64,000 nt of DNA from an uncultured delta proteobacterium. GTDB taxonomy: Bacteria; Desulfobacterota; Binatia; Binatales; Binataceae. Numbering within the stretch: the stretch's first letter is position 1; each line of letters starts with the position of its first letter. The notes under the pieces were generated by a model. It did no database searches. It had not been told where the DNA came from and saw only the letters and a program-made list of their open reading frames with translations. The stretch is from contig CAWDXY010000004.1 in NCBI GenBank assembly GCA_963806485.1, positions 613,801 to 677,800 of the forward strand. The letters run 5' to 3'. The position numbers and the translations under genes are program-made. Positions 52,504 through 59,148 of the stretch are shown piece after piece.

Positions 52504-53373
52504 TTGCACGCGATCAACTACGAAGCCCCTAGCACGCTCGATCAGGCGGTCAGCATCCTCAAAACTCACGGCGAAAATGCGCGTCCGCTCTGCGGCGGCA
52601 CCGATATCCTCATCCAGTTGCGCGCCGGAGTCCGCCGCACCGAGCATCTCGTCGACGTCAAGAAAATCAAGGAGCTGCAAACTCTCTCCTTCGATGCGAA
52701 GAAGGGATTGCGGCTCGGCGCGGCCGTGCCTTGCATCGAGATTAGCGAGAACGACGTGATGCGCCGTCATTACCCCGGCCTGACCGAAGCGGCGCATCTG
52801 ATCGGCTCGCTGCAGATTCAGAACCGCGCCTCCGTCGGCGGCAATCTGTGCAATGGATCGCCTGCCGCTGACACGACGCCCGCGCTGATTGCCCTTGGCG
52901 CGCGCGCCCGAATCGTCGGCCCAAGCGGCGAGCGCGAAGTGCCCGTCGAGGCCTTCGTCGTGTCGCCCGGACGCACCGTGCTCAAGCCCGGCGAGCTGCT
53001 GGTCGAGTTGCTGATTCCCGCGCCCGCGCCGCATTCAAGCGACGCGTATCTTCGATTCATCCCCCGCAACGAGATGGATATCGCAGTGGTCGGCGTGGGA
53101 GCGTCGGTCACGCTCGACGGCGACAAGGTGAAGGCGGCGCGCATCGGACTCGGGGCGGTCGCGGCGACTCCGCTTCTTGCGAGCAAAGCCGCCGACGCTC
53201 TCATCGGTAAGAAACTCGACGATGCGGCCCTCGAGGCTGCCGGACGTGCGGCGAGCGAGGTCTGCAAGCCGATCGACGACATGCGCGGCACTGTGGAATT
53301 TCGGCTCCACGTGACCGGCGTGCTCACGCGGCGCGCGCTGGCGATTGCCGCCGAACGCGCGAAGAAGAGCTGA
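52504..53373 (+). CDS. Xanthine dehydrogenase family FAD-binding subunit
   Basis: CGGTD, IGSLQIQNRASVGGN, DDMRGTVEFR. Confidence 0.92.
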   Translation: MHAINYEAPSTLDQAVSILKTHGENARPLCGGTDILIQLRAGVRRTEHLVDVKKIKELQTLSFDAKKGLRLGAAVPCIEISENDVMRRHYPGLTEAAHLIGSLQIQNRASVGGNLCNGSPAADTTPALIALGARARIVGPSGEREVPVEAFVVSPGRTVLKPGELLVELLIPAPAPHSSDAYLRFIPRNEMDIAVVGVGASVTLDGDKVKAARIGLGAVAATPLLASKAADALIGKKLDDAALEAAGRAASEVCKPIDDMRGTVEFRLHVTGVLTRRALAIAAERAKKS

Positions 53374-53951: not shown

Positions 53952-56240
53952 ATGGCGGCATCAACCACGACAGGCGATTTCAAAGTTATCGGCACCCGTC
54001 CGATTCGGCACGACGGCGTTGACAAGGTGACCGGCCGCGCCAAGTACGGCGCCGACTACGCGTTCCCCGGGATGCTGCATGGCAAGGTGCTGCGCAGCCC
54101 GCACGCTCACGCGACTATCAAATCGATCAAAGTCGACAAGGCGCTCAAGCTCCCCGGCGTGAAGGCGATCGTCACATCGAAGGATCTCCCGCAGGCCGAG
54201 AACAAGCTCGAGCAGTCCGGTGAGATGGTCATCAACCCGATGTACCTGTCGATGAATATCCTCGCGCACGACAAGGTCCTGTACGACGGCCATGCGATCG
54301 CCGCTGTCGCCGCGACCAGCCCGCATATCGCCGAGGAAGCGCTCCGCCTGATCGAGGTCGAATACGAAGTCCTGCCGCCCGTGATGACCGTTGACGTCGC
54401 CACCAGACCGGGCGCGCCGATTCTGCTCAAGGACCTGCGCAACAAGGAGGAAGGCGACAAGCCGACCAACGTCGCGCAGCATTACCAGTTCAAGCGCGGC
54501 GACCTCGCGGCGGGATTCAAGGCGGCTGACTACGTCGTCGAGCGCGAATTCAACACCGCGATGGTCCACCAGGGCTACATCGAGCCGCACAACGCCGTCG
54601 GCATCTACAACTCCGACGGACAGGCGACGATCTACTGCTCGACGCAAGGCGCCTTCGACGTCCGTTCGCTCAGCGCGCAGGTGCTCGGGATGTCGGTCGG
54701 CCATATCAAAGTCGTGCCGGCCGAAATCGGCGGCGGCTTCGGCGGCAAGACCACAATCTACCTCGAGCCGCTCTCTGTCCTGCTGTCCAAGAAGACCGGC
54801 GCGCCGGTCAAGCTCGTCATGTCGCGCTCGGAAGTGCTCCGCGCCAGCGGCCCGACCTCGGGCTCGAAGACCAAAGTGAAGATGGGCGCGACCAAGGACG
54901 GCAAACTCGTCGCCGCCGAAATCTGGATGGCCTACGAGGCTGGCGCGTTCCCCGGCTCGCCGGTGGGCGCGGGCGCGATGTGCATCATCGCTCCGTACAC
55001 CGTCGAGAATTTTCAAATCGACGCGTACGACGTGGTCGTCAATCGGCCCAAGACCGCGGCCTATCGCGCGCCGGGCGCGACCAACGCCGCGTTCGCGTCC
55101 GAGACCGTGATCGACGAGCTTGCCGAGAAGTGCGGAATTGATCCGATCGACTTCCGCATCAAGAACGGCGTCAAGGAAGGCGCGGCGCAGATCGTCGGTC
55201 CTCCGTACAAGCGCATCGGATTTTTACAGACCTGCGAAGCCATCAAGAACAGCGAGCAATACAAGTCGAAGCTAACCGGCAAGTTCCGCGGACGCGGCGT
55301 CGCGTCGGGATTCTGGTTCAACGCCGGGATGCAGTCCTCGGCAACCGTCAATATCCACACCGACGGAACCGCCAGCGTTGTGACCGGCTCGCCCGATATC
55401 GGCGGCTCGCGCGCGTCGATGGCGATGATCACTGCGGAAGTGCTCGGACTGCCGGTGACCGACGTGCGTCCTATCACCGCCGACACCGATTCAATCGGCC
55501 ATACCGACGTGACCGGCGGCAGCCGCGTCACCTTCGCAACCGGGATGGCGGTGTACGAGGCGGCCAAGGACGCGGTGCGCCAGTTGATCGAGCGCGCCGC
55601 CAAGGTCTGGGAGAAAAAGCCCGACGACGTGGACTTTCGAGACGGCAAGCTCTACGCGAAAGGCAACGGCGTGCCACCACTGTCGATCAAGCAACTCGCG
55701 CCTCGCTTCCCGCGCACCGGAGGACCAATCACCGGCCGTGCCAGCGTTAACGCGCGCGGCGTCGGCCCGGGATTCGCGACCACGGTCGTCGACGTCGAGG
55801 TCGATCCCGACACCGGCAAGGTGCAACTGCTCCGATGCACCGTCGCGCAGGATGCCGGCAAGGCGATCCATCCGAGCTATGTCGAAGGACAAATGCAGGG
55901 CGGCACGGCGCAGGGACTCGGCTGGGCGCTCAACGAAGAATATTTTTACGACGACAAGGGCACGCTCCGTAACTCCGGATTCCTCGACTACCGGATGCCG
56001 ACCTGCCTCGACTTGCCGATGATCGAAACGATTGTCGTCGAGGAAGCGAACCCCGGCCATCCGCTGGGCGTGCGCGGCGTCGGCGAGGTGTCGATCGTGC
56101 CGCCGGTCGCAGCGGTCGCCAATGCGATCTATCGCGCGGTCGGCGTCAGGATGACGGAGACCCCGATGTCGCCGCCGAAGCTGCTGAAGGCGATGCTGAA
56201 GCATCGCGGCTCGACACAACATTCCGCCGCGGCGGATTAA
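53952..56240 (+). CDS. Xanthine dehydrogenase family molybdopterin-binding subunit (not CO dehydrogenase)
   Basis: KVTGRAKY, HQGYIEPH, GGGFGGK, active-site loop AYRAPG, GQMQGG, GVGE. Confidence 0.92.
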   Translation: MAASTTTGDFKVIGTRPIRHDGVDKVTGRAKYGADYAFPGMLHGKVLRSPHAHATIKSIKVDKALKLPGVKAIVTSKDLPQAENKLEQSGEMVINPMYLSMNILAHDKVLYDGHAIAAVAATSPHIAEEALRLIEVEYEVLPPVMTVDVATRPGAPILLKDLRNKEEGDKPTNVAQHYQFKRGDLAAGFKAADYVVEREFNTAMVHQGYIEPHNAVGIYNSDGQATIYCSTQGAFDVRSLSAQVLGMSVGHIKVVPAEIGGGFGGKTTIYLEPLSVLLSKKTGAPVKLVMSRSEVLRASGPTSGSKTKVKMGATKDGKLVAAEIWMAYEAGAFPGSPVGAGAMCIIAPYTVENFQIDAYDVVVNRPKTAAYRAPGATNAAFASETVIDELAEKCGIDPIDFRIKNGVKEGAAQIVGPPYKRIGFLQTCEAIKNSEQYKSKLTGKFRGRGVASGFWFNAGMQSSATVNIHTDGTASVVTGSPDIGGSRASMAMITAEVLGLPVTDVRPITADTDSIGHTDVTGGSRVTFATGMAVYEAAKDAVRQLIERAAKVWEKKPDDVDFRDGKLYAKGNGVPPLSIKQLAPRFPRTGGPITGRASVNARGVGPGFATTVVDVEVDPDTGKVQLLRCTVAQDAGKAIHPSYVEGQMQGGTAQGLGWALNEEYFYDDKGTLRNSGFLDYRMPTCLDLPMIETIVVEEANPGHPLGVRGVGEVSIVPPVAAVANAIYRAVGVRMTETPMSPPKLLKAMLKHRGSTQHSAAAD

Positions 56241-56294
56241 TCAGGAATGATCAAAAGGCGGCGGGCCAAGTCGCTCGCCCCCTTCGCTTTTACG

Positions 56295-56564
56295 ATGCCT
56301 ACCGTTGTTATTCCTTCACTGTTACGCAAATTTACTGGCGGCATCGAGCGCGTTGACGTCCCTGGCAAATCAATTCGCGAGCTCGTTCGCCATCTTGGCC
56401 AGCAGTTTCCAGGGATTGACCAGCAGTTGCTCGAAGACGGAGACATCCGGCCGTCGATCGCCGTGTCAATCGACGGTGAAATTGCAACTGGCGGCATATT
56501 GGATACCGTTGGCGAGCATAGCGAAGTACATTTCATCCCCGCCCTCGGCGGCGGCGAAGTGTGA
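56295..56564 (+). CDS. MoaD/ThiS-family ubiquitin-like protein with a C-terminal extension
   Basis: Beta-grasp pattern ending HFIPALGGGEV-stop. Start at ATG 56295. Confidence 0.8.
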   Translation: MPTVVIPSLLRKFTGGIERVDVPGKSIRELVRHLGQQFPGIDQQLLEDGDIRPSIAVSIDGEIATGGILDTVGEHSEVHFIPALGGGEV

Positions 56565-56636
56565 TCGCGTCAAAAACTGGCAGAAAAAACGGAAATTTGC
56601 GCTTTCGAGGGCAGGATCGGAAGATATTGCCGCTTC

Positions 56637-56664
56637 TTGCAACATACGCGGAATTACGTACAAT
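56637..56664 (+). promoter_or_regulatory. Sigma70-type promoter with no downstream protein gene
   Basis: TTGCAA-N16-TACAAT in the AT-rich gap between converging genes. Confidence 0.55.
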
Positions 56665-56670
56665 AACGTT

Positions 56671-56850
56671 GCTGGCCGGGGTTTGCCCCCCTTTTCCCGG
56701 TTGGCTACGGGCCGGGTGGAGCAATCCGCCTGGCCCTTATCATTTGTTCAGAACAGTTATCTGACCGAATCGTATTCGGCGCGGGAATGGGTGGGGTCTA
56801 ATCGCAGGATCGACCTTCCCAAAAAGCTCTAATACCGCCATTAGCGGAAC
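56671..56850 (+). ncRNA. Candidate structured small RNA (family not recognised; 3' end uncertain)
   Basis: A run of hairpins follows the promoter, including a 12-bp stem capped by a GCAA tetraloop (56709-56736). G-U wobbles are favoured on the + strand. Confidence 0.45.
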
Positions 56851-56904
56851 TAATGAAAGCCGTCCAACTTGGCTGGCTATGCTGGCGACGGCCTACCCCG
56901 CCAA

Positions 56905-57303
56905 TCAGCTCATGAAGACTTCGCGCACATGATTGGTGTCGTTGTACTCGCGGACCTGCGCGATCTTGTCGCCCTTGAACAGGAAGTAGAAGTGGTACCG
57001 GTTGGCGTATTTCTTCCCGTTGCCGGCGACTGTGTCCGATTCGGCTTGGATCGCGACGTGCGGGCCCTCGGCGATCACCGAATGGAACTTCAGGTTCAGG
57101 CCATTGGGGAACATCGCCTTGAGTAACGGCGGCGTCGACTTTACATATGCCTGTTTGCCGCGGATCGGCGCGACCCTCGGCAGCCGCCCCATCATCTCGA
57201 ATTCGAAATCGTCGGCGATCAAATCCTCGAAGACCTTTACATCCGCCTTTTCGAAGTTCTTGAGAAAAGCGAGCGCGCGTTCCTTTTGTTGTTCGAGGTT
57301 CAT
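56905..57303 (-). CDS. NTF2/SnoaL-like (ketosteroid isomerase fold) protein
   Basis: IAEGPHVA, GKKYANRYHF, KIAQVREY.DT. Start at MNLEQQK. Confidence 0.85.
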   Translation of the reverse strand: MNLEQQKERALAFLKNFEKADVKVFEDLIADDFEFEMMGRLPRVAPIRGKQAYVKSTPPLLKAMFPNGLNLKFHSVIAEGPHVAIQAESDTVAGNGKKYANRYHFYFLFKGDKIAQVREYNDTNHVREVFMS

Positions 57304-57379
57304 GCGAAAATCTCCAATCACAAGCCGGCCGCAGCGCCTCACGCGCATGCGCCCGCGGGGAATATAGCGTCGTCCGGGC

Positions 57380-57847
57380 TCAGGGCCGGGCGCGCGGACG
57401 GAAGACCAGCACCGAGCATGGCGCGTTGCGCACCAGTTTCTCGGTGACACTGCCGATCAGAATATGTTCGGCGCCGCTTCGTCCGTGCGTCGACATGACG
57501 ATCAGATCAATCGCCTGCTCTTTGGCGTAGTCGACGAGTTTCTGAACCGGATTGCCGACCACGGCAAAGGTGAAGACGTTCTTCGAATCGCCGAAATCAT
57601 CCTTCTTGATACGCGCGAGCTCCTCCTCCGCCTGCTCGATCATCGCGGCTTCCCGCACCAGCTCGCGGCTTTGCTCGGCGCTGGTCGCCAAAGGCAGCGG
57701 GATGAAATGGAGATGCGGCGCGATGACGTGCATCAGATGAACTTCGGCACCGGTGTCCTTCGCCAGTTCCATCGCGCCCCGCATCGCTTCCATCGAGTGC
57801 GTGGAAAAATCGATCGGCGCGAGAATTTTCTTGACGTTCTGAATCAT
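57380..57847 (-). CDS. Universal stress protein
   Basis: KILAPIDFS, DLIVMSTHGRSG...GSVTEKLVRNAPCSVL. Confidence 0.95.
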   Translation of the reverse strand: MIQNVKKILAPIDFSTHSMEAMRGAMELAKDTGAEVHLMHVIAPHLHFIPLPLATSAEQSRELVREAAMIEQAEEELARIKKDDFGDSKNVFTFAVVGNPVQKLVDYAKEQAIDLIVMSTHGRSGAEHILIGSVTEKLVRNAPCSVLVFRPRARP

Positions 57848-57985
57848 AGAAGCCTCCAGGTACCAGAATTCTTGGAACTATAACGAGCCTCGCCGCCGCT
57901 GCAAACCCGCACCCGTCTATGCCATTATCCCGCCACACCGCCGCCCCTGTCGACACTGGCGGTAAAGAAGGAGACCTCTCTTCTC

Positions 57986-58051
57986 ACTGGGTGCAGGGGT
58001 CACCCCTGCCCAAGGAAGCGTGAAACCCACGGAGGGGTTTCACATTAAATT
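57986..58051. repeat. Two-hairpin REP/MITE-like element, family 2, copy b
   Basis: Reverse complement of 42389-42453 with only about four differences. Confidence 0.85.
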
Positions 58052-58092
58052 TTGCACGTTCGTTCACGCACACTCTCAAGGAAGGAACTACA

Positions 58093-59148
58093 ATGAAAGG
58101 AACCGTCTTCCACGGACCCCACGACGTCCGCGTCGAGCGCGTCGACGACCCCGCGCTCCAGACCCCGACCGACGTGCTTGTTCGAATCACGCGCGCCGGA
58201 ATTTGCGGCTCCGACCTGCACCCTTATCACGGCGCGATGCCCATCGAGCCCGGCTTCGTGCTGGGTCATGAAGGCGTCGGCGTGATCGAGGAAGTCGGCG
58301 CGGGCGTCGATCGCCTCAAGAAGGGCGACCGAGTCGTCGTGTCCGGCCTGGTCGCATGCGGCCGATGCTTCTTCTGTCGGCGCGGGCAGCCCTCGCAATG
58401 CGCTGAAAGCGGCTCGGCCGTATTCGGCTACGGCGCGAGCGCCGCCGGCAAGCTCGGATGGCTCGGCGGCGAGCAATCCGAAGCGGTCCGCGTCCCGATG
58501 GCAGACTACACCTGCTACCCTCTCCCCGACGCGATCGACGACGACGTCGCGGTCTTCCTCGCCGACATCCTGCCAACGTCCTACTTCGGCGCCGTCAACG
58601 GCAACATCCGTCCCGGCGACACGGTCGCCATCTTCGGATGCGGCCCGGTAGGCCTATGCGCCGTGATGAGCGCGAAGCTGTTCGGCCCCGCCGAAGTGAT
58701 AGCCGTCGACAGCATCCCGTACCGCCTGGAGCTAGCACGCAAGCTAGGCGCTCTAGCTGTGGACACTGAAAAGGCGCAACAAACGATATTGGATCGCACA
58801 GAAGGGCGCGGCGCCGACGTCACGATAGAGGCAGTAGGCAACGACGCCGCCCTGACATCCGCGATATTGGCCACCCGCGGCGGCGGCACAGTCTCAGTAA
58901 TCGGCGTATTCGCGATGCCGTCGTTCAATTTCCCAATAGGCTACGCCTTCGCAAAGGACCTAACGTTCCGGATAGGCCTGGCCAACATCAACGCCCACAT
59001 CCCGGAACTATCCCGCCTAATAGAAAAAGGCACGCTAGACCCGCGCCCCCTAATAAGCCACATAATGCCCCTAGCCGAAGCAGCCAAAGGCTACGAAATC
59101 TTCAACGCAAGAAAAGACAACGTAATGAAGGTGCTACTAAAGCCTTGA
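58093..59148 (+). CDS. Zn-dependent alcohol dehydrogenase (glutathione-independent formaldehyde dehydrogenase-like)
   Basis: GICGSDLH, GHEG, structural Zn CGRCFFC...C, LADILPT, GCGPVG. Confidence 0.9.
   Translation: MKGTVFHGPHDVRVERVDDPALQTPTDVLVRITRAGICGSDLHPYHGAMPIEPGFVLGHEGVGVIEEVGAGVDRLKKGDRVVVSGLVACGRCFFCRRGQPSQCAESGSAVFGYGASAAGKLGWLGGEQSEAVRVPMADYTCYPLPDAIDDDVAVFLADILPTSYFGAVNGNIRPGDTVAIFGCGPVGLCAVMSAKLFGPAEVIAVDSIPYRLELARKLGALAVDTEKAQQTILDRTEGRGADVTIEAVGNDAALTSAILATRGGGTVSVIGVFAMPSFNFPIGYAFAKDLTFRIGLANINAHIPELSRLIEKGTLDPRPLISHIMPLAEAAKGYEIFNARKDNVMKVLLKP

Follow-up and report, generated by a model that had tools for sequence, protein, structure and literature searches.

The locus studied here lies in a 64,000-nt stretch of a Candidatus Binataceae genome (the window; GCA_963806485.1, contig CAWDXY010000004.1, positions 613,801 to 677,800). 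It occupies the gap between a forward-strand MoaD/ThiS-like gene, whose end is at position 56564, and a SnoaL-like gene that runs towards it on the reverse strand and stops at 56905. The MoaD/ThiS-like protein (56247-56564) ends in ...GGGEV, with its Gly-Gly capped by two residues, and its amino-acid identity is 54-66% in distant genera, where the adjacent small RNA (sRNA) is nearly unchanged. A promoter scan of positions 56200-57500 identified a single sigma70-like site, TTGCAA-16-TACAAT. Downstream of this site, the 82-nt stretch 56669-56750 folds as exactly two hairpins (-44.1 kcal/mol, z = -4.3, with none of 200 shuffles folding as well), separated by a 3-nt linker (Table 1). The opposite strand of the same stretch reaches only z = -1.75, indicating that the G-U pairs make the structure strand-specific. 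The second hairpin and the U-rich tail that follows it form an intrinsic terminator, which sets the length of the unit at about 80 nt rather than about 270 nt.

Table 1 Features of the sRNA gene in the window, copies of the family in the same genome, and examples of an unrelated repeat.
Feature	Position	Strand	Basis or remark
-35 hexamer TTGCAA	56637..56642	+	promoter scan; at fixed position in 90/94 related loci
-10 hexamer TACAAT	56659..56664	+	promoter scan; 6 nt ahead of hairpin 1 base
Predicted transcription start	56669..56671	+	inferred from promoter geometry, 5-7 nt 3' of -10 hexamer
Hairpin 1, 11-bp stem with three G-U pairs, loop UUUGCCCCCCUUU	56671..56705	+	MFE fold
Hairpin 1 loop UUUGCCCCCCUUU	56682-56694	+	C6 at 56686-56691
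Hairpin 2, 12-bp stem, GCAA tetraloop at 56721-56724, intrinsic terminator stem	56709..56736	+	terminator scan
U-rich terminator tail TTATCATTTGTT, predicted sRNA 3' end	56737..56748	+	T-rich tail in all aligned members
Unconserved spacer ahead of the convergent SnoaL-like gene, outside the element	56751..56903	.	blastn, fold z
Window copy (type A)	C4:670469		102.7 bits
Second copy	C2:33514		73 bits
Third copy	C1:1301781 (1301781-1301859)		61 bits
Fourth copy	C4:1555110 (1555110-1555193)		52 bits
Fifth copy	C4:53241 (53241-53324)		52 bits
Dispersed hairpin repeat CCTCCCCCGTTCGTGGGGGGAGGGTCAGGGTGGGGGAC, examples	C4:569055, C4:530814, C1:264358, C2:402713		outside the window

This architecture is conserved in relatives. 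A DNA search found matches in 34 of 36 same-genus genomes, only over the part of the query that corresponds to window positions 56634-56750, and no match in 24 other genera of the class; the matches never reach beyond about 56773. In an alignment of 36 loci, the TTGCA and TAnAAT hexamers are invariant and the spacer between them is variable. The start of conservation coincides with the predicted transcription start, hairpin 1 is invariant, hairpin 2 varies by paired substitutions, and after the T-rich tail nothing can be aligned. Across a larger set of 94 loci, the promoter spacer measures exactly 16 nt in 93 while its sequence varies, the -10 hexamer reads TACAAT, TAGAAT, TATAAT or TAAAAT, and the distance from the end of that hexamer to the first U of the loop is 17-19 nt in every case. 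Median blastn identities, computed against 120 related loci, show that the sRNA unit (93.5%) is better conserved than the flanking genes, namely the 3' end of the XDH-family gene (89.2%), the MoaD-like gene (80.8%), the SnoaL-like gene (79.1%) and the Usp gene (83.0%). Only 4 of these 120 loci give an alignment to the intergenic DNA that precedes the promoter. Overall, the sRNA gene at 56637-56748 is a stand-alone unit, with a promoter conserved in place and a rho-independent terminator of its own, and in our judgement is very likely a real, conserved gene for an RNA of about 80 nt.

These data allow us to revisit the original prediction, which was made from the letters of the window and proposed a promoter-driven, highly structured noncoding RNA of about 270 nt (56637-56903) beginning near 56670. 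Its promoter is borne out, as both hexamers and their spacing are conserved across Binataceae, and so are the hairpin at 56671-56705 and the 12-bp stem with a GCAA loop at 56709-56736, both of which are conserved with covariation. A start near 56670 likewise agrees with the conserved promoter, and transcription probably begins there, but the proposed length does not survive the terminator at hairpin 2. Conservation and covariation, which the prediction had put forward as a check, are found for 56637-56748 and are missing from 56751-56903; family-wide conservation stops at the U-rich tail. The prediction also noted that the hairpins might be explained solely as terminators, which applies to hairpin 2 and not to hairpin 1. 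Finally, the gap had been described as free of any credible forward-strand open reading frame, and we agree: the frames that cross it run through sequence that either does not vary or varies in the paired manner of RNA stems, without codon periodicity. We ruled out a small-ORF reading of the gap on this substitution pattern, which is that of stem covariation and is not codon-like.

The longer molecule had been thought to contain three further hairpins (UCAGA/UCUGA, CCGAAU/AUUCGG and GGGAA..UUCCC) and to switch between hairpin 1 and a terminal closing stem formed with 56890-56903. The three hairpins can be drawn in the sequence, but they are unconserved and within chance expectation. A single-sequence minimum-free-energy fold of 56665-56905 does contain this long-range pairing with 56890-56903 and scores z = -3.4; that score, however, stems from the two conserved hairpins, and the segment 56751-56904 alone is not unusually structured (z = -1.6, with 14 of 200 shuffles equally good). 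Moreover, this segment gave no blastn alignment in any of the 120 related loci, the 3' partner of the closing stem lies in sequence that no relative shares, and a strong intrinsic terminator at 56709-56748 stands in the way. Because 56751-56903 shows neither conservation nor more structure than shuffled sequence, the closing stem and the switch are both unsupported, and we give next to no credence to a structured, switching RNA of about 270 nt.

Within the conserved unit, the loop of hairpin 1 stays fixed while both stems change in a compensatory way. The loop sequence UUUGCCCCCCUUU is invariant in every clear family member apart from a variation between six and eight C's, and some 35 nt show no variation within the genus. 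Across distant genera and paralogues the loop takes the form UUUGCCC(C0-2)CCCUUU, and stem 1 changes around it, for example from CCGGGG/CCCGG to CCAAGG/CUUGG or CUGG/CCAG. We measured covariation in two alignments. In the first, of 80 sequences, 99.1% of cells are paired and nine pairs are changed on both sides (none of 500 shuffles equals this); eight of these are in hairpin 2, so that 8 of its 12 pairs show compensatory changes on both sides. This set was assembled by an exact 25-mer search, which forces the invariance of the loop and inner stem within it. The second alignment, of 28 more diverse sequences, was fitted to a covariance model, which removes this search bias only partly; here 97.5% of cells are paired and 14 pairs are changed on both sides (again 0/500 shuffles), with double compensatory changes at 5 of 10 pairs in hairpin 1 and 9 of 12 in hairpin 2. 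Sliding the structure along either alignment as a control lowers pairing to 27-58%, and RNAalifold independently recovered the same two hairpins. In the 80-sequence alignment, the three G-U pairs of stem 1 stay G-U in most sequences. The near-invariance of the whole stem, these fixed G-U pairs included, exceeds what a model with the seed as the only constraint would need.

The exact 25-mer of hairpin 1 is present in 81 contigs of a species-representative genome collection, nearly all of them from metagenome-assembled genomes labelled Candidatus Binatus, Binataceae or "uncultured delta proteobacterium" and originating from soil or peat. A covariance model built from 80 distinct sequences (R1) matches 148 of 165 Binataceae genomes, in 27 of 30 genera. 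In a 401-genome sample of the phylum, strong matches are restricted to Binataceae; matches in other families reach about 30 bits (at most 32) and proved on inspection to resemble only the terminator, the loop being absent. One copy per genome is the rule in most genera, and genomes with two to nine copies are found mainly in Candidatus Binatus. The genome studied here has five strong copies of 52-103 bits (Table 1), whose loops are identical.

The family comprises two types of copy. In nearly all loci, type A lies 100-470 nt 3' of genes for an XDH-family molybdenum subunit and a MoaD-like protein, in the same orientation, and the genes that it faces are SnoaL-like and/or Usp. Type B copies lie in unrelated, mostly convergent contexts and share a conserved upstream motif consisting of T(A/G)GACGC, about 17 nt, TGnTAGAAG and then a G-rich (GGGGG) discriminator. 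This motif differs from the type A promoter, and its sequence suggests that type B copies are regulated differently; the G-rich discriminator would predict control by growth rate or the stringent response. The order of promoter, hairpin, terminator and T-rich tail is kept in every copy, and in the paralogues the change of stem 1 from CCGGG/CCCGG to CUGG/CCAG is compensated. Type A is no cis-acting leader, as its downstream gene is convergent and the neighbours of the paralogues are unrelated. In the evolutionary scenario that we propose, the window copy would represent the syntenic founder of a family confined to Candidatus Binataceae, and the type B extras, which keep the loop under a different promoter and with compensated stems, would be an expansion atop this single ancestral copy.

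Several further observations concern these copies and their genome. The near-identity of the copies at C4:1555110-1555193 and C4:53241-53324, together with the paralogous 268-aa genes that adjoin them, points to a recent segmental duplication. A sixth, weak copy (C4:1457465-1457545, 30.6 bits) directly 3' of a tRNA-like 3' end shares the stems, the terminator and the type B promoter and has a loop sequence of its own, UUCCAACCUUAGCUUU; it may belong to the family and carry another seed. Separately, a dispersed hairpin repeat of about 40 nt, CCTCCCCCGTTCGTGGGGGGAGGGTCAGGGTGGGGGAC, has at least ten intergenic occurrences in the genome.

Assembled contigs covering the sRNA unit, at depth 2-6, are present in 12 of 12 metatranscriptome runs. 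Most of them extend over the promoter and beyond the terminator, with flanking genes at similar depth; two contigs end at 56667/56668, and most others cross the promoter. In a depth profile over 17 kb, the sRNA does not stand out as a distinct peak at the bin size used. As assemblies, these data do not resolve sRNA ends: they show the locus in RNA libraries, not a discrete 80-nt transcript, and the signal may come from carried-over DNA or from transcription running on out of the same-strand operon upstream. Elsewhere in the window, at 57773-58339, run X5 has a summed contig depth of 75, about ten times that of neighbouring bins, and many contigs break at 58036.

We propose a model in which the sigma70-type promoter would drive a transcript that begins at the foot of the 11-bp hairpin 1 and ends at the GNRA-capped terminator. 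The C-rich apical loop would serve as a seed, forming G-C-rich kissing duplexes with G-rich single-stranded segments of mRNAs. Such targets would typically be ribosome-binding sites (RBSs), where pairing would alter translation or stability without Hfq. A search for Hfq (PF17209) in the 97%-complete genome gave no match, although Hfq was detected in positive-control genomes; an Hfq-dependent sRNA, which would call for Hfq in the same genome, is therefore not indicated. Judged from this analysis as a whole, we think it fairly probable that the family consists of Hfq-independent sibling sRNAs that act in trans by pairing of their C-rich loop with G-rich mRNA sites.

We searched for targets of the loop in several ways. 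When RNAduplex was used to pair the 15-nt loop with positions -45 to +18 of 4035 crude gene calls, no excess over reversed or shuffled seeds was found. A list of every G6 run and every perfect complement of at least 9 nt revealed no functional theme, and no target turned up nearby when 51-59.5 kb was scanned. The RBS of a sigma54-activator gene, GGGGGCAAA, was considered as the best target and rejected, as the gene is present in only 7 of 47 genomes of the genus and the motif is not conserved there. Overall, G6/C6 runs are strongly depleted, with 379 in the 5-Mb genome; the window has four (12131, 32951, 47269(-) and 56686(-)) versus 20.5 +/- 5.8 in dinucleotide shuffles. About 43% of the strand-resolved G6/C6 sites in the genome are intergenic, which is a disproportionate share, and G6 runs lie at RBS distance, in a Shine-Dalgarno-like position, in some 15-20 genes.

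The main rival to the base-pairing reading is a protein-binding role, with the sRNA acting as a decoy or scaffold and hairpin 1, stem included, recognised by a protein such as a poly(C)-binding protein of the KH/CSD type. The invariance of about 35 nt in the genus and of the loop across 27 genera would suit such a role, as would the near-invariance of the stem, whose three G-U pairs are mostly kept with no drift to G-C, and the absence of mRNA-target enrichment in the duplex scan. On the other hand, distant genera and paralogues compensate stem 1 around a fixed loop, which is the pattern of a displayed seed, and multi-copy siblings made of one hairpin and a terminator are typical of base-pairing sRNAs; no candidate protein partner was identified. 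We therefore regard protein binding as unlikely, and expect that the loop probably acts by base-pairing and the RNA probably in trans. Still bolder is the idea of a global regulator, in which a protein or the translation machinery would recognise the perfectly conserved C6-8 loop and the fixed G-U stem, and the abundance of the RNA could have shaped the roughly five-fold G6/C6 depletion of the genome. The surviving G6/C6 runs are concentrated at intergenic and RBS positions, and on this idea the rare G-run RBSs would constitute a dedicated regulon, switched by siblings under two promoter regimes; we hold it to be improbable.

Two other explanations dispense with an independent sRNA gene. The element could be part of the 3' untranslated region of the XDH-family/MoaD-like operon, with hairpin 2 as the operon terminator, hairpin 1 as a stabiliser or processed sRNA, and the "promoter" as an incidental sequence. 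The position of the type A copy on the same strand as the MoaD-like gene and 3' of it fits this proposal, and many metatranscriptome contigs enter the element from upstream and continue across it. Against it, 93 of 94 loci retain the hexamers 16 nt apart though not the sequence between them, the sequence from the MoaD-like stop codon to the -35 hexamer is unconserved, and the paralogues are preceded by unrelated genes and by a conserved promoter of a different type. A 3'-untranslated element thus seems to us a doubtful account of the data. A repeat acting at the DNA level, either a REP/MITE-like palindrome or a protein-binding site, would explain why some genomes have two to nine copies, and the genome studied here has other dispersed hairpin repeats. 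However, most genera have a single syntenic copy, the G-U pairs give a strand-specific structure, every copy shows the same polar layout from promoter to T-rich tail, and the copies are without terminal inverted repeats or target-site duplications. We rejected a REP/MITE identity on polarity, synteny and strand specificity, and rate any DNA-level repeat as very improbable. We return below to the sibling sRNA reading, which we favour.

Candidatus Binataceae (Binatota) are widespread, uncultured bacteria of soil and peat, and full-text literature searches turned up no paper on regulatory RNA in Binatota or Candidatus Binataceae. The covariance model is available and would fill an Rfam-type annotation gap in about 150 species. 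An ancestral syntenic copy combined with genus-specific siblings under a second promoter type also makes this family a tractable case of sRNA family expansion.

We compared the sRNA with known RNA families. The original prediction had found no resemblance to common RNA classes and had suggested an Rfam scan, which returned nothing at gathering thresholds across the whole window, consistent with that view. A permissive search with the locus and 12 relatives returned only sub-threshold hits to BjrC80 and BjrC68, along with chance matches. For BjrC80 (RF02354, threshold 80 bits), the window scores 14 bits (E = 2.8, 56615-56742) and a relative 20 bits, both far below membership. For BjrC68 (RF02353, threshold 39 bits), two distant family members score 26.1 and 22.7 bits, and the window has no match at E<=10. 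BjrC68 of Bradyrhizobiaceae is like this sRNA in its length of 82 nt, its long-loop hairpin, its short linker and its GCAA-capped terminator, but its loop sequence, CAAAUACCCGGCAAUG, differs. BjrC80, also from Bradyrhizobiaceae, carries GCCCCCC in a loop of its consensus, similar to the C-rich loop described here. The resemblance to both is one of architecture and a C-rich loop only.

Closer parallels exist in the way such loops are used. The C-rich loops of 6C/B11 in Actinobacteria pair with G-rich sites in mRNAs, independently of a chaperone (Mai et al, 2019; PMC6486639). Like our sRNA, 6C is short and highly conserved, carries at least six cytosines in a hairpin loop, and belongs to a high-GC lineage without Hfq. 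Unlike it, 6C has two C-rich loops, whereas this sRNA has one loop and a terminator, multi-copy siblings and a home in a different phylum; the 6C model has no match at E<=10 in the window or the relatives. In Xanthomonas, the C-rich loops of sX13 act on G-rich RBS motifs without Hfq (Schmidtke et al, 2013; PMC3771888). That RNA differs from ours in having three stem-loops with 4C motifs and a single-copy gene at the polA locus, and shows no model match to it. With the family described here, the range of chaperone-free sRNAs with C-rich loops would grow beyond Actinobacteria and Xanthomonas to take in another GC-rich lineage without Hfq.

In its multiplicity, the family recalls Qrr of Vibrio, LhrC of Listeria and the CcsR or "cuckoo" RNAs of Alphaproteobacteria, which are multi-copy sibling sRNA families. 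Sibling sRNAs are paralogues within a genome that share one seed-bearing loop and have different promoters, and the seeds of LhrC and CcsR are C/U-rich and aimed at Shine-Dalgarno-like sequences. With five copies that have identical loops, the genome studied here exceeds the two paralogues with a common seed region that mark a sibling family. Qrr, LhrC and CcsR are unrelated to it in sequence, and the expansion seen here took place within one genus. Overall, the sRNA represents a new family of a recognised type, that of small, Hfq-independent sRNAs with a C-rich loop and sibling copies, and not a new kind of mechanism.
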